Positions 11,853 to 59,480 of a stretch of DNA of 64,000 nucleotides are shown here, one piece after another. The first letter of the stretch is position 1; every line of letters starts with the position of its first letter. The notes under the pieces were generated by a model. That model did not search any database. It was not told where the DNA came from and saw only the letters and a list, made by a program, of their open reading frames with translations. The translations under genes and the position numbers were made by a program. Source of the stretch: a virus (taxonomy: Duplodnaviria > Heunggongvirae > Uroviricota > Caudoviricetes); IMG/VR virus record IMGVR_UViG_2778261223_000007, positions 12,132-76,131 of that record. One strand, written 5' to 3'.

Positions 11853-12298
11853 TGGGTAACTTTGGAAATTATTTCATTTTTATCATGGCATTTGTTGCCA
11901 TCATTGACCGTTTCATTTTTCGTCGCAAGAGTGTTGAGATTTTGAGTATTGGTGACGCTGTAGTGAAAGAATCCGCTATAGCATTTCCTGTTTCGCTACG
12001 TGTTAAGCGAAGCTGGGTGAGCAATGCTCAAATCGAATATTGGTTGCAAGACCTGAAAAATCCATCTGTGGTTATTTCAGGGAAAACGCGACCAGTTGAC
12101 GCCTCAAAACGCGGTGAGAGAGAAGAGTATTTGCTCATCGATACGAAATATCTTGAGCCAACGAAGTGGGATCTGAAAGTCACATTGACTAACGGTAACT
12201 GCCGACTGAATCCGCTTTATCGCATTTTCCCTATCAATGACTGCATAGAGCGCCAATTTACGATCGAAAAGCGTGAAGGAGACTGGGATGTCAAATAA
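11852..12298 (+). CDS. membrane-anchored protein (P1 LydB-like by position and size)
   Basis: 148 aa, N-terminal hydrophobic helix; start overlaps upstream stop. Confidence 0.35.
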   Translation: MGNFGNYFIFIMAFVAIIDRFIFRRKSVEILSIGDAVVKESAIAFPVSLRVKRSWVSNAQIEYWLQDLKNPSVVISGKTRPVDASKRGEREEYLLIDTKYLEPTKWDLKVTLTNGNCRLNPLYRIFPINDCIERQFTIEKREGDWDVK

Positions 12299-21811: not shown

Positions 21812-21840
21812 TTGATCTTCCATGTTTTCAGGCTTATATT
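21812..21840 (+). promoter_or_regulatory. sigma70-like promoter (-35 TTGATC, 17-bp spacer, -10 TATATT) for immI-like module 1
   Basis: Seen directly; start site would fall just upstream of the first antisense target repeat. Confidence 0.4.
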
Positions 21841-21996
21841 CATGCCGTCGTAGCAAATTCTGCGACCAGGTTTGACAGCCTGAATGTTAGTGCGGACAAC
21901 CGCAGATTTCCGATATTGCGGTATTTTTGTGTCCGTAAACCGCGTTACGCCCGAATTATGGTGGGGCGTGATGGGGAGGCTTCGGCCTGCTGGTTT

Positions 21997-22016
21997 CACT
22001 AACGCCAGTCTGTCAA
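21997..22016 (+). ncRNA. candidate c4-like antisense RNA core (CACTAAC-N6-CTGTCAA)
   Basis: Complementary to two repeats TTGACAG...GTTAGTG at 21871..21892 and 22039..22075, the second overlapping the RBS of the icd-like ORF. Exact RNA ends unknown. Confidence 0.35.
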
Positions 22017-22086
22017 CCCTGTCACGTCCTGCCACCTGTTTGACAGCGGGTAGCAGGTTGTTAAACCTGTTAGTGAGGCCGTAACT

Positions 22087-22311
22087 ATGGTTAATGCCAA
22101 TCCTTGCTCACGTCCAGAATTCATCTGGCGTTTCCACTCCCTGCAAAAACACTGCGATCACTTCGCAATTGCCGCAACCGAAAAAGAAGCCCGTTCTCTG
22201 ATCCCTGATCAGCATGGTGTTCTTACTGGTCGTTTCTCTACTTCCCCACAACCAAACACTAATCCCTGGTATCGCAATATTACCAATCCCGGCATTGCGG
22301 AGGCACACTGA
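22087..22311 (+). CDS. Icd-like small protein (immI-like module 1)
   Basis: 74 aa; stop overlaps the antirepressor start (TGATG); paralog at 58280..58495 shares the EFIWRF...QKH...AATE.EARS...VEAH pattern. Confidence 0.5.
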   Translation: MVNANPCSRPEFIWRFHSLQKHCDHFAIAATEKEARSLIPDQHGVLTGRFSTSPQPNTNPWYRNITNPGIAEAH

Positions 22312-23018
22312 TGGATATCTGCATTCTTGAAAAGCCATCAATGACCAGCATTGAGATCGCGGAGCTGGTGGGAAAACGTCATGACAATGTGAAGCGTACC
22401 ATTGAAACATTAGCCGAATCCGGCGTTATTGTTCGTCCTCAAATTGAGGATGAACCAAAAATAGATGTAATGGGGCGTTCTCGATTAATTCAGGTGTTCC
22501 GATTTAGCGACGAGCAAGGCAAACGAGACAGCATCATTGTAGTCGCACAGCTTTGTCCTGAGTTTACTGCCCGGCTGGTGGACCGCTGGCGCGAACTGGA
22601 AGAACAAGTACGCCAGCCGTTGACCGAAATAGAGATGATCGCCGCAATGGCTGCAAATGCAGTTCAGCAGCAAAAGCGGCTTCATGCTGTTGAGTCAAAG
22701 GTTAGCCAGGTCGCTGAAACCGTCGAGCAAATCAAGAAGGGCAATATGCCAGATGGCTACATTGGCTACCGCCAGCTGGCGGCGAAATGTGGCCTGACCG
22801 AAGCCAAATGCCGTAACCTGGTTAACGCTTACCGGATTCCCACCGATACACATGAGTTTTTAACTCCAGAGGGGGTATTGTCGCGTCGTTCCATCGTGGC
22901 CTTATCTCCCTTCATGAATGCTTTTAACCGGATGATGTCGGAGGCTGAACACCGAGGAAAACGCTGGTATCACCCCAAAATGGGGCAATTCCAGGTGATC
23001 GGTTGGGGAGGTGAGTGA
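22311..23018 (+). CDS. antirepressor, Rha-family N-terminal domain
   Basis: 235 aa; MTSIEIAELVGKRHDNVKRTIE matches the phage Rha regulatory-protein signature; paralog of 58495..59421. Confidence 0.6.
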   Translation: MDICILEKPSMTSIEIAELVGKRHDNVKRTIETLAESGVIVRPQIEDEPKIDVMGRSRLIQVFRFSDEQGKRDSIIVVAQLCPEFTARLVDRWRELEEQVRQPLTEIEMIAAMAANAVQQQKRLHAVESKVSQVAETVEQIKKGNMPDGYIGYRQLAAKCGLTEAKCRNLVNAYRIPTDTHEFLTPEGVLSRRSIVALSPFMNAFNRMMSEAEHRGKRWYHPKMGQFQVIGWGGE

Positions 23019-23215
23019 TGGACATCATGCAGGCGGTAAAAAAAATCAGGGAAGGACAGGCTGAAGTGTGCCGCCGTAAAGCATGGAGTGTTGGTGTATG
23101 GGCCTGGCCTGATAATTACTCTACTACCGGATGGTTTTGTATTAATGGACTCCAGATCCGGGAAGTTGATTTATCGACGGCTGATATAGTCGGTAATGAT
23201 TGGATCGTGACTTGA
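23015..23215 (+). CDS. small DUF2829-like protein (split-off C-terminal domain of antirepressor)
   Basis: 66 aa, GTG start overlapping upstream stop; aligns with the C-terminus of the fused paralog at 58495..59421; ends DLSTADIVGNDWIVT. Confidence 0.45.
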   Translation: MMDIMQAVKKIREGQAEVCRRKAWSVGVWAWPDNYSTTGWFCINGLQIREVDLSTADIVGNDWIVT

Positions 23216-23223
23216 AGCGTGAT

Positions 23224-23248
23224 GCCCCGGCCTGGCCGGGGCTTTTTT
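23224..23248. terminator. terminator hairpin between convergent genes
   Basis: CCCCGGCC-TGG-CCGGGG followed by CTTTTTTC; a near-identical hairpin occurs after the paralogous antirepressor at 59434..59455. Confidence 0.55.
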
Positions 23249-23733
23249 CATGCCTCATTAGTTGAGGTTGCTGCGTCTCCGACTGGTAACAGAGCGGTAT
23301 TGCGTGGTTCGCCAGCAGGCCAGCGATAGCCAGACACTCTTGATGTTGGGAATGCGCGAATATTAACCGCATCCCCCTGGTTCCCACCCAGGACAAGCAG
23401 ATCGCCATTGGCGCGGCGTCCGACAACGAAGCCTACGTGCCCACCGCCTACACGGGTAAATACAACGATACATCCGTATGCCGGTGTATCTAATTTCTCG
23501 CCCCAATCCAGATAGGATTTTGCCGACTCAAATCTTGTTGAGCGGATGCCTACACGTTCCAGCATTGCACCGACAAATGCTGCGCACCACGGCGTTTCAT
23601 CGTCTTTAATTCCGCCGCGCTTGATGTCGCGCCAGAACTGAACGATTTCAGGGTTGTGTTTAGCGCCTTTTATTTCAGTCAGGCCAATGTGCTTACGGGC
23701 TTCAATTAGCCAGCGAGGTTCAATGTTTGCCAT
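23248..23733 (-). CDS. NlpC/P60-CHAP-like amidase family protein (TIGR02594-like)
   Basis: 161 aa; conserved Cys (TPWCAAFV) and His (GGGHVGFV) arrangement typical of this family (from memory). Confidence 0.5.
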   Translation of the reverse strand: MANIEPRWLIEARKHIGLTEIKGAKHNPEIVQFWRDIKRGGIKDDETPWCAAFVGAMLERVGIRSTRFESAKSYLDWGEKLDTPAYGCIVVFTRVGGGHVGFVVGRRANGDLLVLGGNQGDAVNIRAFPTSRVSGYRWPAGEPRNTALLPVGDAATSTNEA

Positions 23734-23884: not shown

Positions 23885-26800
23885 TTGGACAAACTACTTC
23901 ATTCAATCAGTGAAGCCTCCAGCTTAGGCGAACTGATTGAAATTGTTAGTCGGTTGCATAAATTACGTGCTGTTGCGACCTTTGGCGTCAGGAAAGCCGA
24001 TGGCGTCAGTATTCAGAAAACACGCCGGGCAGCAAATAATGCCGCAGTAAATCTTCTTAATTCCCTTCCGCCCGGCTTCGATGGGGCGAAATTAACTGAC
24101 GAACAACGTCAGATTCTTGCCGGGTATACCGGTGAAGGCGGCCTGACAGATGGTGAGGGCAGCCAATACGAATACTACACGCCACAGTTTATGGCTGAAG
24201 GTATATGGGATCTGTTTGCTGACTACGGTATTGATGGCGGGCACGTACTGGAACCATCAGCGGGCACAGGTATTTTCCAGGAGACAAAACGGCAGGGCAT
24301 GATAATGACCAGCGCGGAACTGTCTCCGATTTCTGGTCGAATAAACCAGCTTTTGCACCCGGAAGACGATGTGAATATCGGGGCGTTTGAGGCGCTGGCG
24401 GCGAAAGATGCAATGTATGACCACGCTGTTGGTAACGTACCGTTTGGTGAAGGGCGTTCCGGCGTTGCCGGGCTTGATCCGGCATATGCAAACGAGAAGA
24501 ACGTTGGCAATTACTTTGTGCTGCGCACGATCGACAAGGTTAAGCCTGGTGGGCTTATCGTATTGGTGGTGCCAAATGGCATGACCGATGGTACGAAATA
24601 TAAAAAATTGCGCGATAAAGTCAGCCGTAAAGCGGAATTTTTGGGCGCACATCGTATGCCTTCCGGTACGTTCAGCGAATCCGGTACAGATACCGTGGTG
24701 GACGTATGGGTATTGCGTAAACACCCGGAAACCTTCCTGGAGATGATCCCCGACACGGATGATTCAACACTCAAATCGGCAAACGTCCTTTGGGATACCT
24801 TCCTCAAAGGAAAATGGTTTACAACCGAAGGGAAGCGATTTGTTTACGGCGACATGGAACGTGCCAGCTTCCGCAATACCCTGGTGGTGAAAAAAGACGG
24901 TCGTGTATCCAATGAGTCGATGAAAACCGCGCTATCTCGTCGCTTTGATAGTCGCATCAATTGGGATTTGCTCGGCGTAACTACTCAGGCATGGCAGGGC
25001 GCGAAAGTGGGCGATAAACGCCTTGTAGGCGGTATCTGGCATGAGTTTGATGGTCTGAAATGGGTTAAGGACACGACAACCAAATCCTCCGCGCTTGATG
25101 TAAGTCGATATGGTGTTTCGACGTTTGGCGATCTGCAGATCGCGTTCCAGTCAACAAACGGGATTCTGGCTTTGTCATGGGACCAGATATCGGCGATCGC
25201 GTCCGACTATCCATCGGTTGTCAGTGATGAAGTGGCAGCAATGATTCGCTTTGCTGGCAAGCAGCGAGAAAAAGATAGAGAGCGCGTTATGCGCGGTGCG
25301 CTGATAGGGCAGTTGATCAACAAGGCACTTGATTTGCGTAACCTGGGGGTGAACGTTGATGACAAACTGGCAGATGCATCCCGCCTGGCGGCAGCAGAAG
25401 TTGCGAAGTATGGACCACCACACGCCATTAAGCTGAATGGGCTTGCTGAAGCTGGCGCTAAAAACTGGATGACGTTCACTGGCAATGTGAAACAGGATGG
25501 TTCCACTTCTGACCTTCTGGCAGGGCGACTTGATGTAACGGATGGTGCTGCCGGTATTGACTTTACACGTCCTGAACAAGTGATAGCACATCTTTTCAGT
25601 GATGTAGCCCTTAATCCTATAACGCTGGGAGACTTTCGTGAGGCGTTTGCTGGTGAACTGCCAGAGGACGACGACGCGGCCCTTGAATACCTGGCGAAAT
25701 TTGATGATATCGCTATTGATGGGTATGGCTGTCTGCTGCCGATGGACCGCGCCACCAGCGGCGATGTTGCAACCAAAACAGCACTGCTGGTGGGCTGGCG
25801 TGATGCGTCAACAGGTGAGCAGAAAGCGAACTTTGAGCGTCAGTTGGCGAAAATCGAAGAGAAACGCATTTTCACGCCACTAAATAAAGTCACCGTTAAT
25901 CTGAATGCCCGCTGGCTGGATCGCCGCTTGATAAAAGAGTTCTTGGCAGAGCAGGGCTATGACGAGTTTAAGTACACTGAACCTGATCTGAAGGTCGTCG
26001 ATGGCATTCTGGTATCTCCGGACGATTACGAAGGTAAGGACGGGGTATTTACCGGCTATCAGCTACGAACCGTAAACGGCAAAAACGGGAATGAGTTCAA
26101 GAAGGCCAACAATAAAGACGGCTTCCTGAACCAGTTAGAAAACTACCTGAACGGTGTTAAACCGCGTGGGCAGAACGCTAACGAGTACCTGGATAAAATT
26201 GCTCAACTGGAAGTTAGCTTTAACGACTGGTTACGCACCCACCCGCAGGCGGATCAGATAGCCCGTGACTATAACGACGCATTCAATGGTTTCATTCCGT
26301 TCACACATTCTGACGCACCGCTTGGCCTGGAAGGGATTAGTGGAAAGCGCATTCCTCTGACTTATCAGAATGAAGAAGTTCGGCGCTTGTCAGAAGATGG
26401 GCGTGGCATCATGGGATTTGGTACCGGGCTGGGTAAAACCACGACCGCGCTTGCGCTTGAGGCGTATAACTTCGAAACAGGTCGCACTAAACGCACGTGT
26501 ATTGTTGTTCCGAAGGCGGTTTATCAGAACTGGTATCACGAGGCACAGAGTTTCTACAGTGCTGATGCCTTCGCCAATATGATGTTTATCGGTTTGGATG
26601 AAGTTCGTGATGACAGCGGAAATATTCTGACCGCGCCGGTGCTTGATGAAAATGGCGAACCACGCCTCGACAGTAACGGGCAGCCTCTTACCAGAAATGT
26701 TGTGAAAGAGTCCTCCAGCGCCGTTATCGTTCAGCGTATGAACATGATCCCGTCGTCAAATTGGCGAACGGTCATCATGACAAAAGAACAATTCGCGTCT

Positions 26801-29800
26801 ATCCCGCTACGAGAAAAAACCATCGAGGAGAACTCACAGCAAGCTGTCTTTAATGCTGTGGAAATGGGGCGTCTTGACCTGGCGTCCGGTAAACACCGTG
26901 ATGCGCAGAAGAAGAACAAGATTAAGGATCAGGCCGCGAATACCGGTACAACGAAGAAGCAAAATATCCCGTACTTTGAGGATATGAACTTCGATAGCGT
27001 GATTGCCGACGAGGGGCATAACTACCGCAACTCCTTTAATGCCGGGCGTGAAGCGGGACAACTGGCATATTTGCCTAACCCGGCAGTATCCAAGATGGCC
27101 CGCGACATGGCTGTAAAAGCTGCGTACATGATGAAACGCAACAACGGGCGTGGTGTAGTCATGCTGACGGCAACACCGCTGGTGAACAGTCCGATTGATG
27201 CCTTCAACATGCTGTCTACTGTCATTCCGCAGGAAGAGTGGATGCGTATGGGCATCATTACGCCTGATGATTTCGTTCGTGTGTTTGGCAAAACAGCCAC
27301 AGTTCAGGTCCAGAAAATTTCCGGGGAAGTGGAAGAGAAGCAGGGGCTGGTGGGCTTCCAGAACCTTGACGGCCTGCGTGGTATTTTCCATCGTTGGGCC
27401 ACTCTGAAGACTGCTGCAGATGTCGGAGCGACGGTTAAAATTCCCGACATCATCGAGAACACCTTGCAGATCCCGATGACAGGGGAGCAGGAGACTGCTT
27501 ATGAAGAGCTTCGTAAGCGTGCTCAGGAGTTAAGTCGCAATGATGAGCTGACAGTCGATGAAAACGGGCATATCACTAACGACAAACCGGATGATTTCAT
27601 CTTCTCCATCATCCGTGACATGGATAAGGTTGCTATAGACCCGGATCTGTATGCCAGTGCGATTACATTCCAGTTCCCCGTTGAGCTTGCAGACCAGGTA
27701 AAAGCTATTGCTGATGCCTTGCCAAAAGTAGCTGGCGGTAAAGTGGCAGATGATGTTGATGAGGCCGAGGAAGACGGCGCTGGCGGGCTGGTCAGTACGC
27801 GTACCAGCAAGGTAGTGAAGACCGCTTTTAGTGAACATCCGACGCATGTTGAAATACGTGCCAGCATTGAACTGGAAGCTGAAATACTGAAGGCCATTGC
27901 GGCTGCCGGCATTGATATGCAGCAGGTATCGCACCCCATCCCGCCGAAGTATGCCGCGCTGATCGAAAATCTTCGTGAAGGTCTGAAGAACGGTAAGCAG
28001 ATCGTCTTTATTGATGAAAAAGCCCAGCACCAGAAGCTGCGCCGTATTATCGCCAGTGCACTGCAAATGCCGGAGCAGGAGATTGGCATTATCAATGCGA
28101 CGACAGTTAGCCAGGCTGGTGGCATCAAACTGAAGAAGGTGAATAAGCCGACCGAACCTACTCCAAACAAAAACGGTGAATACAAAGAAGGGGCATGGGA
28201 AACCTACTACAGCAAACTTGCCCAATATGAGGATTATCTCTCCGCTAAAAATGATGCTGGCCTTGAGGGCATGGAAGGTATTGCCGCCGACTATAACGAA
28301 GGTCGCACGCGCATCATAATCTGTAACAAGAAGGCTGAAGTAGGTATTAACCTGCACATCGGGACAACCGATATCCACCACCTGACACTACCCTGGACAC
28401 CAGCCAGTATCGACCAACGAAATGGGCGCGGTGCGCGCGTAGGTTCACCGCAAGAAAAGGTCAATGTTCACTACTATTGTGGCAAAGGCACATTCGATGA
28501 CTTCCGTCTGGATACGCTTAAACGTAAGAAAGACTGGATCAAGATGGTGATGACCTCCGACATGTCAGAGATCGCCAATGGTGATGCGGATGATGCTGAT
28601 GAACGCGCCATTATGCTGGCGGCAAACCCGGAAGAACGCCGCGCAATCATGGCTCGCCAGGCGCAAGAGCGTGAAGAACGTCTGAAACTGAAAGCACAGC
28701 GCGAGGCCAACAATGCTCTCGATATCTACCTGAAAGCGGCAAACGCCGCCGGAAAAGATATCGGCATGATGGAGACAGAACTGAAAAGCGCGATGGAACA
28801 GATAGAGTATTACCAGCGAAATCTTGACGACCTGATAAAAGCGGGTACGAACAGGAATGGGCAAAAATACGCGCTTGAGCAGTTGAGTAGCTACAGAAAA
28901 CGTGCGCGGGTGCTGCGGTTTGCGATCACCAGGGCAAAAGACGCGGATACCATAATGAAACGCTCTCGTGGTGATGTGGAGCGCGCTATTAAGTCTGGTG
29001 TGCTGGATATCAGTATCGATGTTATTCAGAACCCACAGGAATATATGCGCACTGACAAGAATATCCTGTTGCATAAAGGTAGTTATTACCGTGCAGTCAT
29101 TGATGATCGCGAAACAACAGCGATTGTCCGGGTGGAAAAAATTGACGGTGAAAAAGCACAATACCTCTGCCGTATCGCCTGGCTGGATAGAGCAAGTCGT
29201 TACGCTCGAGCACCGGGGTCAATCGTTACATTGCCGTTTGACTCTGTGATTGAAGCGGTAACTTTTGAAGAGGGGGTAGCTGAATCGCGCGCAACGGCTG
29301 CGCGAGGTGTTCAGTGCCACCAGCTATCAACAATACTTACTCGCGATCAGTTCTATGATGCTATTCGCAATGGGGTAATGAATGTTATTGCTGGTAAACC
29401 TGGTAATGCATGGGGCGGTGGGTCAGCTATTAAATACTGGGCATATCGCACAGATGATGGTCAGATCGCGCTGTCATCGGCCTATGATGGCGTGATAGGC
29501 CAAAAAATCGGGCGAGCATCGGATATAGCACCTGAGCGATGGATATATCCTGATGGCAACGACGAGGCGCTGAAGCGTGAAGTGGCAAAAATACAAGCCA
29601 GTGATAACCCGCTGAATATCGTGGACGGCGAGGGATTCCTCCAGGCATTGTATGGGTATGATTACATCCAGGGAATGCAGGCATGGGGCGCACAGGCAAC
29701 GATGGATGATGTTGCCCAGGAGTTCGAAAACTGGATGGCTGGGCGTGGTCTGTCAGGTCGTTCGCTTAATAAAGTCACTTCTGAAGATATTCTTAGCTTG

Positions 29801-30721
29801 TTCCGCAAACCGTCCGGAGAAGGTCTGGAATCATTCTGGAGGACCGTGCTGGCATACCGTTTATTCCAGGGCAGGATGAAAGCCTTTAGCAATATCGATG
29901 ATATTGAACGGATGTTTAATCAGGTCAAGATCGCGAAAATTAAGGCGAAGATCGAAAAAACACGTTCTGCGCTGGTGGCCTGGCGCGATGCATTGTTTGA
30001 GCAATATAAATCACTCAGTGATGCAGATGGATGGGCGGCATTGGAACAGCTGGCGAATAATGGGGTAGATGGAGCGAAACTCGCCATTGTTCAGGCTGAT
30101 AACCCCCTGGAATCACCGGCAGCACAGTGGATTAAGGTGGGGGCTGTCATCAATGCATTTGATGAAAAACACATTAGTAAGGACGATTTTGCTGATGCTG
30201 TTTCTGTTAATCGCCTGGTAGAAATGGCTACCCGCCGCGCCCGTGAGTTGAAAGACGGCGACTATGTGAATGAGTTGCCGGATACGCTCAAATCGGCAAC
30301 GTGGCAGGACTATGTATCGCTGAAAAACGGCGGGGCCACTGAATCAGAGATCGCGGAAAGGCTTGAGCAGGCTGAAAGCAAAAGAGAAGAGCAGGCGGCA
30401 GTGGCTGAAGCCAGAGCTGATGAAGCGGCGAATGATGACTATATCATTGTGGTTAATGATAAGCCGATTCGCGCTAAGGCGCGTGTTCGCGGGCGCTGGT
30501 GGAGCGTCAGCGAGGACGTTGGCGCGGTTTATCTCATTGCCGACCAACCAGGTTCCTCGACAATACGGAACGCCAAAGACGCGATTAAGAAGATTGGCGG
30601 GCGTTTCTGGAATTTTGAAGCAAACCCGGTTGCTGATGTGAACTTTGACCGTCCTGCATGGATGGTATCTACGCGTTACTCGGTAGATGAACTGCGTAAA
30701 ATAATCGCCGATGCGGCCTAA
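23885..30721 (+). CDS. darB: DarB-like antirestriction protein: N6-adenine methyltransferase-like N-terminal domain plus SF2 helicase-like domain
   Basis: 2278 aa, TTG start with GAGGGGG RBS; MTase-like NVPFGEG motif; helicase Walker A GFGTGLGKTT, DEGHNYRN box, motif VI QRNGRGARVG; size matches P1 DarB. Confidence 0.8.
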   Translation: MDKLLHSISEASSLGELIEIVSRLHKLRAVATFGVRKADGVSIQKTRRAANNAAVNLLNSLPPGFDGAKLTDEQRQILAGYTGEGGLTDGEGSQYEYYTPQFMAEGIWDLFADYGIDGGHVLEPSAGTGIFQETKRQGMIMTSAELSPISGRINQLLHPEDDVNIGAFEALAAKDAMYDHAVGNVPFGEGRSGVAGLDPAYANEKNVGNYFVLRTIDKVKPGGLIVLVVPNGMTDGTKYKKLRDKVSRKAEFLGAHRMPSGTFSESGTDTVVDVWVLRKHPETFLEMIPDTDDSTLKSANVLWDTFLKGKWFTTEGKRFVYGDMERASFRNTLVVKKDGRVSNESMKTALSRRFDSRINWDLLGVTTQAWQGAKVGDKRLVGGIWHEFDGLKWVKDTTTKSSALDVSRYGVSTFGDLQIAFQSTNGILALSWDQISAIASDYPSVVSDEVAAMIRFAGKQREKDRERVMRGALIGQLINKALDLRNLGVNVDDKLADASRLAAAEVAKYGPPHAIKLNGLAEAGAKNWMTFTGNVKQDGSTSDLLAGRLDVTDGAAGIDFTRPEQVIAHLFSDVALNPITLGDFREAFAGELPEDDDAALEYLAKFDDIAIDGYGCLLPMDRATSGDVATKTALLVGWRDASTGEQKANFERQLAKIEEKRIFTPLNKVTVNLNARWLDRRLIKEFLAEQGYDEFKYTEPDLKVVDGILVSPDDYEGKDGVFTGYQLRTVNGKNGNEFKKANNKDGFLNQLENYLNGVKPRGQNANEYLDKIAQLEVSFNDWLRTHPQADQIARDYNDAFNGFIPFTHSDAPLGLEGISGKRIPLTYQNEEVRRLSEDGRGIMGFGTGLGKTTTALALEAYNFETGRTKRTCIVVPKAVYQNWYHEAQSFYSADAFANMMFIGLDEVRDDSGNILTAPVLDENGEPRLDSNGQPLTRNVVKESSSAVIVQRMNMIPSSNWRTVIMTKEQFASIPLREKTIEENSQQAVFNAVEMGRLDLASGKHRDAQKKNKIKDQAANTGTTKKQNIPYFEDMNFDSVIADEGHNYRNSFNAGREAGQLAYLPNPAVSKMARDMAVKAAYMMKRNNGRGVVMLTATPLVNSPIDAFNMLSTVIPQEEWMRMGIITPDDFVRVFGKTATVQVQKISGEVEEKQGLVGFQNLDGLRGIFHRWATLKTAADVGATVKIPDIIENTLQIPMTGEQETAYEELRKRAQELSRNDELTVDENGHITNDKPDDFIFSIIRDMDKVAIDPDLYASAITFQFPVELADQVKAIADALPKVAGGKVADDVDEAEEDGAGGLVSTRTSKVVKTAFSEHPTHVEIRASIELEAEILKAIAAAGIDMQQVSHPIPPKYAALIENLREGLKNGKQIVFIDEKAQHQKLRRIIASALQMPEQEIGIINATTVSQAGGIKLKKVNKPTEPTPNKNGEYKEGAWETYYSKLAQYEDYLSAKNDAGLEGMEGIAADYNEGRTRIIICNKKAEVGINLHIGTTDIHHLTLPWTPASIDQRNGRGARVGSPQEKVNVHYYCGKGTFDDFRLDTLKRKKDWIKMVMTSDMSEIANGDADDADERAIMLAANPEERRAIMARQAQEREERLKLKAQREANNALDIYLKAANAAGKDIGMMETELKSAMEQIEYYQRNLDDLIKAGTNRNGQKYALEQLSSYRKRARVLRFAITRAKDADTIMKRSRGDVERAIKSGVLDISIDVIQNPQEYMRTDKNILLHKGSYYRAVIDDRETTAIVRVEKIDGEKAQYLCRIAWLDRASRYARAPGSIVTLPFDSVIEAVTFEEGVAESRATAARGVQCHQLSTILTRDQFYDAIRNGVMNVIAGKPGNAWGGGSAIKYWAYRTDDGQIALSSAYDGVIGQKIGRASDIAPERWIYPDGNDEALKREVAKIQASDNPLNIVDGEGFLQALYGYDYIQGMQAWGAQATMDDVAQEFENWMAGRGLSGRSLNKVTSEDILSLFRKPSGEGLESFWRTVLAYRLFQGRMKAFSNIDDIERMFNQVKIAKIKAKIEKTRSALVAWRDALFEQYKSLSDADGWAALEQLANNGVDGAKLAIVQADNPLESPAAQWIKVGAVINAFDEKHISKDDFADAVSVNRLVEMATRRARELKDGDYVNELPDTLKSATWQDYVSLKNGGATESEIAERLEQAESKREEQAAVAEARADEAANDDYIIVVNDKPIRAKARVRGRWWSVSEDVGAVYLIADQPGSSTIRNAKDAIKKIGGRFWNFEANPVADVNFDRPAWMVSTRYSVDELRKIIADAA

Positions 30722-35153: not shown

Positions 35154-35229
35154 GATGGTGTAGCTCAGCGGTTAGAGCGGTTGACTGTTAATCAACGGGT
35201 CGATGGTTCAAATCCATCCACCATCGCCA
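35154..35229 (+). tRNA. tRNA-Asn (anticodon GTT)
   Basis: 76 nt; acceptor stem GATGGTG/CACCATC, anticodon loop CTGTTAA, T-loop TTCAAAT, 3' CCA encoded. Confidence 0.85.
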
Positions 35230-35231
35230 AT

Positions 35232-35307
35232 GCCGGTTTAGCTCAGTTGGTAGAGCGCCTGCCTTGTAAGCAGGATGTCAGCGGTTCGAGTCCGTTAATC
35301 GGCACCA
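35232..35307 (+). tRNA. tRNA-Thr (anticodon TGT)
   Basis: 76 nt; GCCGGTTTAGCTCAGTTGGTAGAGC..., anticodon loop CTTGTAA, T-loop TTCGAGT, 3' CCA. Confidence 0.85.
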
Positions 35308-36844: not shown

Positions 36845-36920
36845 GGCCCCTTAGCTCAGTGGTTAGAGCTGGCGACTCATAATCGCACGGTCACCGGTTC
36901 AAGTCCGGTAGGGGCCACCA
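36845..36920 (+). tRNA. tRNA-Ile2 (anticodon CAT, lysidine type) or tRNA-Met
   Basis: 76 nt, near-identical to E. coli ileX over most of its length (GGCCCCTTAGCTCAGTGGTTAGAGC.GGCGACTCATAATCGC...GGTTCAAGTCC...GGGGCCACCA). Confidence 0.85.
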
Positions 36921-57968: not shown

Positions 57969-58072
57969 AATACTGACTGTTGCGCCCTGGCATTATCGTG
58001 GGGTATATTTCTACGGCACCTTAGAAAAACGGGTGCCGGGATTGGAACCCCGGATAATGTCAAAGGCGACAC

Positions 58073-58094
58073 AGACGCCGAAAGCGTCTTTTTT
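58073..58094 (+). terminator. rho-independent terminator
   Basis: GACGC-CGAAA-GCGTC followed by TTTTTT. Confidence 0.6.
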
Positions 58095-58139
58095 GTGTCA
58101 TGCCATCGCACAGCCATACGTAGCGTTTAGCTCAGAGAT

Positions 58140-58270
58140 CAATGGTAGTGCTGGCTGGGCTGCCGAAAGGCAGGCCGGTTCCCTTTGACGCCGGTAGTTC
58201 CAACCCAGTCAGTGCTACCGCCATTGAGATTGGAACCTCACGCGGTAGCTCCTTAACTTAGTCAAAGGAG
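58140..58270 (+). ncRNA. candidate c4-like antisense RNA region of immI-like module 2
   Basis: CCTTTGAC at 58182..58189 is complementary to GTCAAAGG at 58261..58268, which overlaps the AAGGAGG RBS of the icd-like ORF; further pairs GTTCCAA/TTGGAAC and GGTAGTGCTG/CAGTGCTACC (with G-U pairs). Confidence 0.25.
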
Positions 58271-58279
58271 GCTGCCAAT

Positions 58280-58495
58280 ATGGCTACTATCCCTACCCCA
58301 ACTCATTCTGAATTTATCTGGCGTTTCTATTCCTGCCAAAAACACCTGTATATCTGCGTCATGGCTGCTACCGAAGCAGAGGCGCGCTCATACCTTCCCG
58401 AAGAACCCTGCATTTTTGCTGCTCGCTTCACTCTTGATGCGATGGAGATCCTCAATTACTGGAATCTGCCGATGAACTGCGTGGAGGCGCACTGA
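58280..58495 (+). CDS. Icd-like small protein (immI-like module 2)
   Basis: 71 aa paralog of 22087..22311; AAGGAGG RBS; stop overlaps antirepressor start. Confidence 0.5.
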   Translation: MATIPTPTHSEFIWRFYSCQKHLYICVMAATEAEARSYLPEEPCIFAARFTLDAMEILNYWNLPMNCVEAH

Positions 58496-59421
58496 TGAAT
58501 CTGTCCATCTCTCAAAAAGCGACAATGACCAGCATTGAGATCGCGGAACTGGTAGGTAAGCGCCCTGATAACGTTAAACGCACCATTGAACACCTGGCGG
58601 AACGGGGCGTAATATCTTTTCCTCAAATTGAGGAAAAGCCCACCGCAGGCCGCCCGGCGAGCTATTACGTCTTTGAAGGCGAACAAGGCAAGCGTGACAG
58701 TATCATTGTCGTCGCACAGCTTTCTCCCGAATTTACCGCCCGGCTGGTGGACCGCTGGCGCGAACTGGAGAATGCCCGGGTACAGTTAAAATCAAAAGCC
58801 GAAATCCTGGCTGAAATGGCGCAAATGCATCTTGAGCATGAACGCCGGATCAACGCCGTTAATGCCCAGGTAGCCGAAGTATCGGCACAAGTGTCCAAAG
58901 TCGCTGAAACCGTCGAGCAAATCAAGAAAGGCAATATTCCGGAAGGCTACATTGGCTACCGCCAGCTGGCGGCGAAATGTGGCCTGACTGAAGCCAAATG
59001 CCGAAACCTGGTTAACGCTTACCGGATTCCCACCGATACGCATGAGTTTTTAACTCCCGATGGTTTGCTTGCGCAACGCTCCATTGTGGCCCTGGCCCCC
59101 TTCCGGAAAGCCTTTAAGCAGGTGATGTCGGAGGCAGAACCACGCAATAAACGCTGGTATCATCCAAAGATGGGGATGTTTCAGGCAATCCACCATCCTG
59201 TGCCTGAAAGTCCAAAGGCAAACCTGTCGTTGCATACCGCCAGAGAGAGGATTAAAACAGGCTATGCAATCGTATGCCGTCGAGCATCCTGGCCTGAAGG
59301 TGTATGGGTGTGGCCCGAAGGTGGATCACGAAAGCACTGGCGCACTATCCGGGATGGGAAAATCCATGCGATTGATTTAGCTCCAGAGGATGTTGTTGCT
59401 ACGGACTGGATTGTTAGTTAA
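58495..59421 (+). CDS. antirepressor: Rha-family N-terminal domain fused to DUF2829-like C-terminal domain
   Basis: 308 aa; N-terminus MTSIEIAELVGKRPDNVKRTIE; C-terminus YAIVCRRASW...DLAPEDVVATDWIVS corresponds to the separate ORF 23015..23215 of module 1. Confidence 0.6.
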   Translation: MNLSISQKATMTSIEIAELVGKRPDNVKRTIEHLAERGVISFPQIEEKPTAGRPASYYVFEGEQGKRDSIIVVAQLSPEFTARLVDRWRELENARVQLKSKAEILAEMAQMHLEHERRINAVNAQVAEVSAQVSKVAETVEQIKKGNIPEGYIGYRQLAAKCGLTEAKCRNLVNAYRIPTDTHEFLTPDGLLAQRSIVALAPFRKAFKQVMSEAEPRNKRWYHPKMGMFQAIHHPVPESPKANLSLHTARERIKTGYAIVCRRASWPEGVWVWPEGGSRKHWRTIRDGKIHAIDLAPEDVVATDWIVS

Positions 59422-59480
59422 TTACTGTTGCCCCGGCCTGTCCGGGGCTTTAACTACTAAATAACCGGATTCTCCGCACG

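Follow-up and report, generated by a model that had tools for sequence, protein, structure and literature searches.

Does the element represented by this DNA carry a single immunity I (immI) switch of the phage P1 type or two, and if two, would they answer to different antisense RNAs? We addressed this question in a 64,000-nucleotide (nt) stretch of a Caudoviricetes virus (IMG/VR record IMGVR_UViG_2778261223_000007, positions 12,132 to 76,131), called the window below, in which an earlier note had described, besides an immI-like module at about 22 kb (module 1), a second, sequence-divergent one with a fused antirepressor (module 2). Positions 57980-59450 hold a complete second immI-like operon, made up of an IsrK-type leader RNA, a C4 antisense RNA, an icd-like open reading frame (ORF) and a gene for a 308-amino-acid (aa) Rha-family protein, and this operon parallels module 1 at 21812-23242. 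Our reading, to which we assign a probability of about 0.8, is that module 2 is a second, complete and independently gated copy of the P1-type immI switch in an IsrK/C4 form. Its features are as follows.

57980..58009, + strand: predicted promoter, read from the sequence (-35 hexamer TTGCGC at 57980-85, 18-nt spacer, -10 hexamer TATATT at 58004-09)
58016..58094, + strand: IsrK-family leader RNA (Rfam RF01394, 62.7 bits; gathering score 50)
58042-48, + strand: decoy site a1, TTGGAAC, inside the IsrK-family RNA and complementary to C4 a'
58059-66, + strand: decoy site b1, GTCAAAGG, inside the IsrK-family RNA and complementary to C4 b'
58073-58089, + strand: stem of the intrinsic terminator of the IsrK-type RNA, then six T (terminator scan); a1 and b1 lie just before it
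58138..58225, + strand: C4-type antisense RNA (Rfam RF01695, 77.1 bits over the full-length model; gathering score 45)
58182-58189, + strand: C4 loop b', CCTTTGAC
58197-58203, + strand: C4 junction a', GTTCCAA
58230-36, + strand: target a2, TTGGAAC, an exact 7-nt complement of a'
58261-68, + strand: target b2, GTCAAAGG, an exact 8-nt complement of b', overlapping the Shine-Dalgarno sequence AAGGAGG (58265-71) of the icd-like ORF
58280..58495, + strand: icd-like ORF, 71 aa (phrog_1426, E=5.5e-41)
58495..59421, + strand: ant2, 308 aa (Pfam PF09669, 30.7 bits against a cut-off of 29.9; phrog_63 'anti-repressor Ant', E=2.3e-64)
59224..59418, + strand: Tad2-like (DUF2829) C-terminal domain of Ant2, aa 244-308, 40% identical to the 66-aa ORF of module 1
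59431..59449, + strand: GC-rich hairpin GCCCCGGCCTGTCCGGGGC 3' of ant2, then TTTAAC

The ORF coordinates proposed earlier were confirmed in both modules; the start of module 2 had been placed at 58100 and moves upstream by about 85 nt, to the IsrK-family RNA at 58016-58094. The pairing proposed earlier was confirmed as well, in that CCTTTGAC (58182-58189) and GTCAAAGG (58261-58268) are perfectly complementary; the second of them overlaps the Shine-Dalgarno sequence, and this in turn sits 8 nt ahead of the icd-like start codon. By our own estimate, an 8-mer from a 12-nt loop would find its complement within a leader of ~70 nt with a chance expectation of about 0.005. The b2 8-mer recurs upstream at 58059-58066. 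The stop codon of the icd-like ORF overlaps the ant2 start codon as TGATG (58493-58497). The layout of an IsrK locus of the Gifsy-1 type is thus present, with a terminated isrK-family RNA followed on the same strand by a small ORF and an antirepressor-like gene, and the IsrK-type RNA occupies the place of the a1/b1 element of P1. A promoter layout like the one predicted here (TTGCGC, 18 nt, TATGCT, then the isrK start) was seen in the P1-like phage RCS47. RefSeq places a 39-aa 'ash family protein' (WP_071526433.1 in plasmid pYU39_89) at window positions 58142-58261 (+), nearly all of it within the C4 RNA gene; the family is probably spurious, having been defined on what is really a conserved RNA.

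By analogy with P1 and Gifsy-1, this arrangement suggests the following course of events. One promoter would drive a transcript that begins with the IsrK-family RNA, carries the decoys a1 and b1 and ends at the intrinsic terminator; read-through would produce the C4-family RNA, which, as in P1, would be processed out of the transcript. The C4 loop b' and single-stranded junction a' would then pair with b2 and a2 in the leader, b2 covering the icd Shine-Dalgarno sequence, and the resulting block of icd translation would, by analogy, extend to the overlapping and coupled ant2. Translational coupling of this kind is established for P1 icd/ant and Gifsy-1 orf45/anrP. Without C4, as in a newly infected cell, or with C4 titrated by the decoy RNA of IsrK type, as the parallel with Gifsy-1 would suggest, the Icd-like protein and Ant2 would be made, and Ant2 would push the element towards lytic growth. 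Module 1 would run likewise, with P1's own recognition sequences. Its features are listed next; its a and b sites were transferred from the P1 annotation, which its complete identity to P1 in the RNA part allows.

21812-21840, + strand: promoter-like site (promoter scan)
21834-21886, + strand: c4-a1b1 element (Rfam RF03163, 54.4 bits, above the gathering score)
21872-78, + strand: a1, TTGACAG, aligned to the annotated P1 sites
21886-92, + strand: b1, GTTAGTG, aligned to the annotated P1 sites
21954-22039, + strand: C4 RNA (Rfam RF01695, 68.8 bits)
21996-22003, + strand: b', TCACTAAC, predicted to pair with GTTAGTGA at b2 (22069-76; upstream copy at 21886-92)
22010-16, + strand: a', CTGTCAA, predicted to pair with TTGACAG at a2 (22040-46) and a1 (21872-78)
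22087-22311, + strand: icd-like ORF, 74 aa (phrog_1426)
22311-23018, + strand: Ant1 core, 235 aa, ending in FQVIGWGGE (Pfam PF09669, 37.2 bits against the cut-off of 29.9)
23015..23215, + strand: stand-alone Tad2-like ORF, 66 aa from a GTG (phrog_7385, E=1.8e-49); from the ATG at 23018 it has 65 aa, as annotated in phage D6
23224..23248, + strand: intrinsic terminator, GCCCCGGCCTGGCCGGGGC, then six T

From the a1/b1 region through c4, a2, b2 and the icd start, an alignment with P1 and its feature table showed 100% identity for module 1. Identity to P1 is complete or close to it over window positions 21846-22198, which comprise c4, a2/b2 and icd as far as its midpoint. The upstream RNA region of module 2 had been described as different from that of module 1; it is different in sequence and specificity, but both C4 RNAs belong to the same Rfam family (RF01695, 77.1 versus 68.8 bits). 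In each module the loop and junction sequences match their own targets only, both upstream and downstream, in agreement with the different antisense specificities claimed earlier, and no loop complementarity of at least 6 nt was found between either C4 and the leader of the other module. We therefore predict that neither C4 RNA represses the other module.

We compared eight C4 loci, namely P1/module 1, module 2, RCS47, 673R5, ASU11, pF801-4 and two contig loci, L043 and L045. The a' and b' sequences vary among the eight, and in nearly every locus the target sites vary complementarily, upstream as well as downstream. Examples other than module 2 are given here as a', then b'.

P1 and module 1: CTGTCAA, TCACTAAC
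pF801-4: CTGCTAA, TCATGTAC
RCS47: GTCTCAA, CCTTTGAC
ASU11: CTGCGAA, TCCTTGATCG
L045: CTGTCAA, TTTCTTGAGTG

Relative to module 2, for instance, a' changes from GTTCCAA to GTCTCAA in RCS47, and both target copies change from TTGGAAC to TTGAGAC. The exceptions are L043, which is without an exact downstream a2, and 673R5, in which each downstream site requires a single G-U wobble to pair. The fold of C4 is likewise kept, 11 of its 23 pairs showing compensatory changes across the eight loci. Together, the co-variation of a'/b' with their targets and the compensated fold support two functional, orthogonal RNA gates in one element. The same covarying pattern has reportedly long been known for P1 versus P7 heteroimmunity, from the work of Citron and Schuster in 1990. 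Whole-sequence RNA duplex energies, which ignore intramolecular structure, failed to discriminate and were set aside in favor of exact-complement mapping and covariation. In ASU11 (L009 2359-2547) an isrK and C4 pair lies inside a coding sequence annotated as 'putative antirepressor' (2302-2964), the true start of which is probably downstream of the annotated one.

The region in question is ~99.9% identical to the Salmonella Typhimurium ST213 plasmid pYU39_89, the sole difference being one extra T in a T-run. Escherichia phage D6, a sequenced plasmid prophage, carries both modules (module 2 at 73.6-75.6 kb, 97.5% identity; module 1 at 19.6-21.3 kb, 94% identity), and we therefore take the window to be a D6-like phage-plasmid with both modules inside the phage replicon. 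Full-length copies were found on 110 complete plasmids for module 1 and on 92 for module 2, often in the same record. The possibility raised earlier that module 2 lies outside the replicon, in an adjacent prophage, was ruled out by its presence in the D6 genome and by the occurrence of the modules in ~100 complete plasmids. That P1 carries a single immI is correct for P1, but two are present in D6 and in several P1-like phages.

In its essentials, the finding was already known, and the type of system is well understood. The D6 annotation shows Icd-like and anti-repressor genes at both places (orf83/orf82 and orf19/orf18/orf17, orf17 being the small ORF behind the first anti-repressor gene), the first ORF of module 2 is labeled Icd-like in pYU39_89, and a second c4/icd region has been pointed out for that plasmid in a published account (PMC6799933). 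In the annotation lines and text consulted for D6 and pYU39_89, there is no mention of an IsrK-type RNA, of separate specificities, of a Tad2-like domain or of the split/fused relation. New here are the orthogonal specificities with their covariation, the IsrK-type RNA carrying a1/b1, the recombination of the modules with each other, the assignment of the split/fused domain to the Tad2-like fold and, in other ~90-kb plasmids, the modules that lead from C4 directly to a Tad2-like gene.

What, then, do the two gates control? The small domain that ends Ant2 and stands alone in module 1 covers nearly the whole Pfam Tad2-like profile (PF11195), with 15.1 bits (E=0.034) for the 66-aa ORF and 12.4 bits (E=0.25) for the Ant2 C terminus. 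A 3-sequence profile of the two window copies found seven proteins among 1.84 billion representative proteins; one of them, P0244 (E=4e-4), passes the Pfam Tad2-like model with 37.4 bits, and another, P0241, scores 23.9 bits. AlphaFold2 (AF2) modeled the stand-alone ORF with a pLDDT of 93 and a pTM of 0.77, and in a Foldseek search of the PDB ranks 1-16 were all Tad2 (probability 1.00, TM 0.73-0.77), the next match having a probability of 0.06. The best matches among viral models (BFVD) were Tad2-like/DUF2829 proteins, some of them within larger proteins. The fold evidence for the Ant2 domain comes by way of this module 1 paralogue. On this evidence we place the small domain in the Tad2-like (DUF2829) fold family as a remote member. 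Like SPO1 Tad2, ModTad2 and HgmTad2/AcrIIA7, it combines one helix with an antiparallel sheet (TM 0.73-0.77 to 8SME, 8SMF, 8V3E and 8WJE) and has the motifs RxxW...G and D..a.DW; unlike them, it has 65 aa instead of ~89, is 13-17% identical to the solved Tad2 proteins, stays below the Pfam cut-off, is fused to or cotranslated with an antirepressor and is predicted to be gated by an immunity antisense RNA.

The small domain had only non-significant matches to PDB chain sequences and no reliable residue-level alignment to SPO1 Tad2, although in one such search four of the six matches were DUF2829 proteins, which we record for consistency only. A homologous-protein search with the 66-aa ORF returned three near-identical or frameshifted proteins only, and tblastn of the small domain against 50,697 phage records returned D6 only. 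The Ant2 copy is under purifying selection (pN/pS 0.11-0.21).

The closest stand-alone relatives, P0241 and P0242, are encoded on contigs of 88-110 kb, each immediately after a c4-a1b1 element and a C4 RNA and with no icd or ant; at these loci b' is complementary to sequence just before the start codons. The C4-gated stand-alone Tad2-like genes are as follows.

L043 2752-3291: c4-a1b1 and C4 directly upstream; 96 aa
L045 2746-3207: c4-a1b1 and C4 directly upstream; 68 aa; an 11-nt b' complement just before the start codon and a terminator after the gene

The small domain is thus found in three C4-gated arrangements, fused to Ant, as a coupled third cistron and as the sole cargo behind C4, which argues that it is part of the switch's payload.

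Its possible roles are those of an immune-signal sponge, an oligomerization module or a switch effector. The contender that survives best, at somewhat short of even odds, is that the domain shares the DUF2829 fold only and serves as a tetramerization or partner-binding module, or as a small repressor-inactivating protein, and not as a signal sponge. Tad2 is a homotetramer, so that the fold can serve oligomerization; the domain always travels with immI-like modules, in three architectures; and in L045 the C4 gate has this domain as its sole cargo, as would be expected of a switch effector. The residues of SPO1 Tad2 that contact gcADPR include W25, N26, W73 and D79. In the present subfamily the Trp of the RRxxW motif and a C-terminal D...DW are invariant, but the residue after the conserved Trp, which is Asn in AcrIIA7-type chains and a contact in SPO1 Tad2, is Ser or Pro, in a tentative mapping drawn from the RRxxW motif. 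Against a purely structural or effector role, the DUF2829 proteins tested so far bind nucleotide immune signals, the translation of the module 1 copy as a protein of its own speaks for an autonomous function, and there is no similarity to P1 Coi, a relation that was considered and dropped. The more specific proposal that the domain binds immune signaling nucleotides under antisense control, being silent in the lysogen, where the host would keep its Thoeris/CBASS-type defense, and made together with the antirepressor on infection or induction, strikes us as doubtful. In a stronger form, the fused domain may make the antirepressor signal-responsive, so that the plasmid prophage leaves a cell whose abortive-infection alarm has fired. 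Were the proposal true, the three C4-gated architectures would mark a new regulatory class of anti-defense genes.

The larger part of the cargo raises a separate question. Ant2 residues 1-232 are 66% identical to the 235-aa ORF of module 1 (E=9e-111), and the two icd-like ORFs, both matching phrog_1426, are 45% identical over 51 aa. Phage_pRha lies at the N terminus of both Ant proteins, with a marginal score in Ant2. Ant2 consists of a Rha-type winged helix (aa 11-93), a long helix, a conserved central domain (aa ~146-232), an 11-residue linker and the Tad2-like domain; the full-length AF2 model, which has low confidence beyond residue 212 (pLDDT 29-42), was used for this secondary-structure layout only and not for a fold search. 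Relatives of 301-313 aa and 75-99% identity form more than 100 clusters. By analogy, Ant2 may act as an antirepressor against a D6-type C1 repressor.

Alternatively, the RNA gate would work in the way set out above, with a product that is not an antirepressor: the Rha-family protein would bind DNA as a regulator of the Rha/Roi type, acting directly on phage or host promoters, or would have a host-toxic early function. We consider this unlikely, though by no means far-fetched, and hold the same opinion of its corollary, that module 2 is an RNA-gated early-regulator cassette and not a second 'immunity I' in the P1 sense. The Pfam matches of Ant2 are to Rha and winged-helix families only (HTH_24 and Phage_pRha at the N terminus and, weakly, an HTH_AsnC-type family at aa 153-170), the annotation 'DNA-binding protein Roi' is common among homologues, AF2 shows two winged-helix-like units joined by a long helix, and no homology to P1 Ant1/2 or KilAC was detected. 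On the other side, phrog_63 and several related PHROGs are labeled anti-repressor, P1, RCS47 and pF801-4 have KilAC/ORF6N antirepressors in this gated position, and the Gifsy-1 gene in this position, anrP, codes for a protein that induces the prophage.

The earlier note had observed that one domain is fused to Ant in module 2 and split off in module 1, and had asked which state came first. The domain is indeed the same (40% identity, E=1e-17, between Ant2 residues 244-308 and the 66-aa ORF). A sequencing frameshift as the cause of the split, a doubt voiced at the time, was rejected: the split is present in D6 and in 15 of 15 module-1-type IMG/VR loci, and the 235-aa plus 65-aa arrangement recurs in many distinct protein clusters with 86-100% identity. 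At the boundary, the ant1 stop and the 65-aa ORF start overlap as UGAUG with GGAGG 8 nt upstream, which marks a real gene boundary. The fused state is equally stable in module-2-type loci (308 or 313 aa). The nearest outgroup Ant cores, those of Klebsiella phage ST16-OXA48phi5.3 (62% identity) and phage ASU11 (57.5%), have the form of module 1, both ending in ...FQ(A/V)IGW without a Tad2-like domain, and the other relatives of the small domain are small stand-alone proteins. The simplest history, and the likelier one, is therefore fusion in module 2 and not fission: a small gene behind ant, as in module 1, would later have been fused to it. DNA alignment across the fusion junction found no homology, and the event itself is untraceable.

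Several observations weigh against the immI-like switch, or against parts of it, and are brought together here. The predicted module 2 promoter falls below the threshold of the consensus scan, with a -35 hexamer matching 3 of 6 consensus positions. The hairpin behind ant2, described earlier as a similar downstream terminator, is identical to that of module 1 in 18 of 19 positions (GCCCCGGCCTGTCCGGGGC at 59431-59449 versus GCCCCGGCCTGGCCGGGGC at 23224-23242), but a T-run and a terminator-like score in the terminator scan belong to the module 1 hairpin only. No P1-consensus C1 operator with up to three mismatches was found in the window, where a D6-type C1 operator may differ, and we therefore make no claim on C1 control. 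KilAC, the domain of P1 Ant1/Ant2 (PF03374 in P1 Ant1), was not found in Ant2, which gave Rha/HTH matches only, and Ant2 shows no similarity to the KilAC-type Ant of RCS47. As proteins of the Rha/Roi family are also annotated as DNA-binding regulators, 'antirepressor' is best taken as a family label. In four D6-like IMG/VR contigs (L037, L039, L040 and L041) ant2 is frameshifted near residue ~190 while module 1 is intact, through either real pseudogenization or assembly error, and these contigs would make ant2 dispensable in at least some lineages. Neither window copy of the small domain reaches the PF11195 gathering score of 25 bits, the stand-alone ORF of module 1 appears weakly constrained (pN/pS 0.4-0.8, on very few changes), and the direction of the fusion follows from parsimony on two outgroups and not from a phylogeny.

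We give next to no credence to the idea that module 1 is the sole working immI and module 2 a decaying, redundant copy or a remnant carried along by recombination, with no present role, for although the frameshifted contigs, the hairpin without a T-run and the poor promoter would suit it, the window, D6 and 92 plasmids have every part of module 2 intact, a'/b' match all four target sites exactly and co-vary with them between relatives, the C-terminal domain is under the purifying selection given above, full-length Ant2 occurs in more than 100 protein clusters, and modules that are only about 45-70% identical over most of their DNA did not arise by recent duplication.

Where the second switch came from is partly recorded in its mosaic structure. 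The pairwise alignment of the modules that had been called for gave about 45-75% DNA identity over most of their length and 66%, 40% and 45% protein identity for the Ant core, the small domain and icd, respectively; a recent tandem-type duplication was rejected as the origin of module 2 on the strength of the low DNA identity. Within the ant genes, a ~150-bp block (22717-22866 versus 58907-59056) is 93-97% identical between flanks of about 45-75%. Database proteins of 306 aa (P0114 and relatives) correspond to Ant1 in their N-terminal ~190 residues and to Ant2 thereafter, the crossover lying in this block, and the two resident modules evidently recombine with each other. The earlier suggestion of an acquired antirepressor or a hybrid element was supported, the front end of module 1 being 100% identical to P1 and that of module 2 being 89% identical to the second module of RCS47/JL22; both homologies stop in mid-icd. 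The D6-like E. coli plasmid pF801-4 (NZ_OY757137; L047 704-2171) has a P1-type a1b1-C4-icd front end of a further specificity, and its cargo has an ORF6N domain in place of Rha, the remaining 211 residues being 95% identical to Ant2, including the Tad2-like end. Homologies ending in mid-icd, domain-swapped cargo and Ant1/Ant2 recombinants thus suggest that RNA gate, icd gene and cargo domains are exchanged as separate pieces.

Among known systems, module 2 resembles the immI of P1 and P7 in the order of its parts (a1/b1, C4 RNA, a2/b2 over the icd ribosome-binding site, icd overlapping ant) and in a C4 RNA that fits the same Rfam model as that of P1. Unlike P1/P7 immI, it has different a'/b' sequences, an IsrK-type terminated leader in place of c4-a1b1, a Rha-family cargo with a Tad2-like end instead of KilAC-domain Ant1/2, and no P1 C1 operator.

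The isrK-orf45-anrP locus of Gifsy-1 works by read-through and coupled translation, with prophage induction by AnrP, and the short IsrK acts in trans on complementary sequences (PMC4825925). Module 2 is like this locus (orf45 being STnc1160) in its terminated isrK-family RNA, in the expected read-through into a small ORF coupled to an antirepressor-like gene, and in the complementarity of IsrK to a downstream stable RNA. It differs in having a recognizable 71-aa icd-like gene behind a separate C4 RNA and in being part of a plasmid prophage; and whereas Gifsy-1 has antQ, no Q-like antiterminator is annotated upstream here, D6 and pYU39_89 showing a Ref-like nuclease and small hypothetical ORFs. 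P4 immunity (seqA-CI RNA-seqC) is likewise based on the pairing of a processed RNA with target copies that flank it on both sides, and IsrK has been called a structural homologue of seqA (PMC4825925). The CI RNA of P4, as cited in PMC4825925, brings transcription of replication genes to a premature end, whereas b2 of module 2 lies on the ribosome-binding site, as in P1.

The closest relatives of the module 2 front end are the second isrK-C4-icd modules of the P1-like phages RCS47, JL22 and vB_EcoM-673R5, which sit between pacB and c1. RCS47 and JL22 are 87-89% identical to module 2 in DNA from the isrK start to mid-icd (window 58015-58428), and for 673R5 the match (80.3%) is confined to part of icd. 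In RCS47, b' is unchanged and a' differs at two bases, with compensation in a1 and a2. The cargo of these three, an ORF6N + KilAC antirepressor or ORF6N alone, is unlike Ant2. Also unlike the window, RCS47 carries a P1-type C1 operator, ATTGCTCTAATAAATTG (L003 2911-2927), 39 nt upstream of the -35 hexamer of its second isrK-C4 module.

Two orthogonal RNA gates in one plasmid prophage would provide a natural system in which to study how heteroimmunity among P1- and D6-like phage-plasmids depends on antisense specificity. Such elements are frequent carriers in E. coli and Salmonella, with about 100 complete plasmids in this analysis. As the C4 specificity of module 1 is exactly that of P1, a D6-like resident is predicted to silence the ant of an incoming P1, and the reverse, while module 2 would be private to its own kind; resident and P1 should share immI specificity even though the ant cargo of the former is unrelated to that of P1. 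IsrK, known from Gifsy-1 as an unusual self-activating small RNA, here takes the place of the P1 a1/b1 decoys and carries them, which joins two literatures. A Tad2-like domain on or next to an antirepressor, and sometimes as the sole cargo of C4, suggests an anti-defense-type protein wired into a lysis-lysogeny switch, which would be new if confirmed.

Elsewhere in the window, module 1 is flanked, as in D6, by a 2278-aa DarB-like helicase/methylase ORF (23885-30721, +) and on the other side by a 161-aa peptidoglycan-hydrolase-like ORF (23248-23733, -). Three tRNA genes lie at 35154-35304 and 36845-36917 (+; Rfam tRNA, 66-75 bits).

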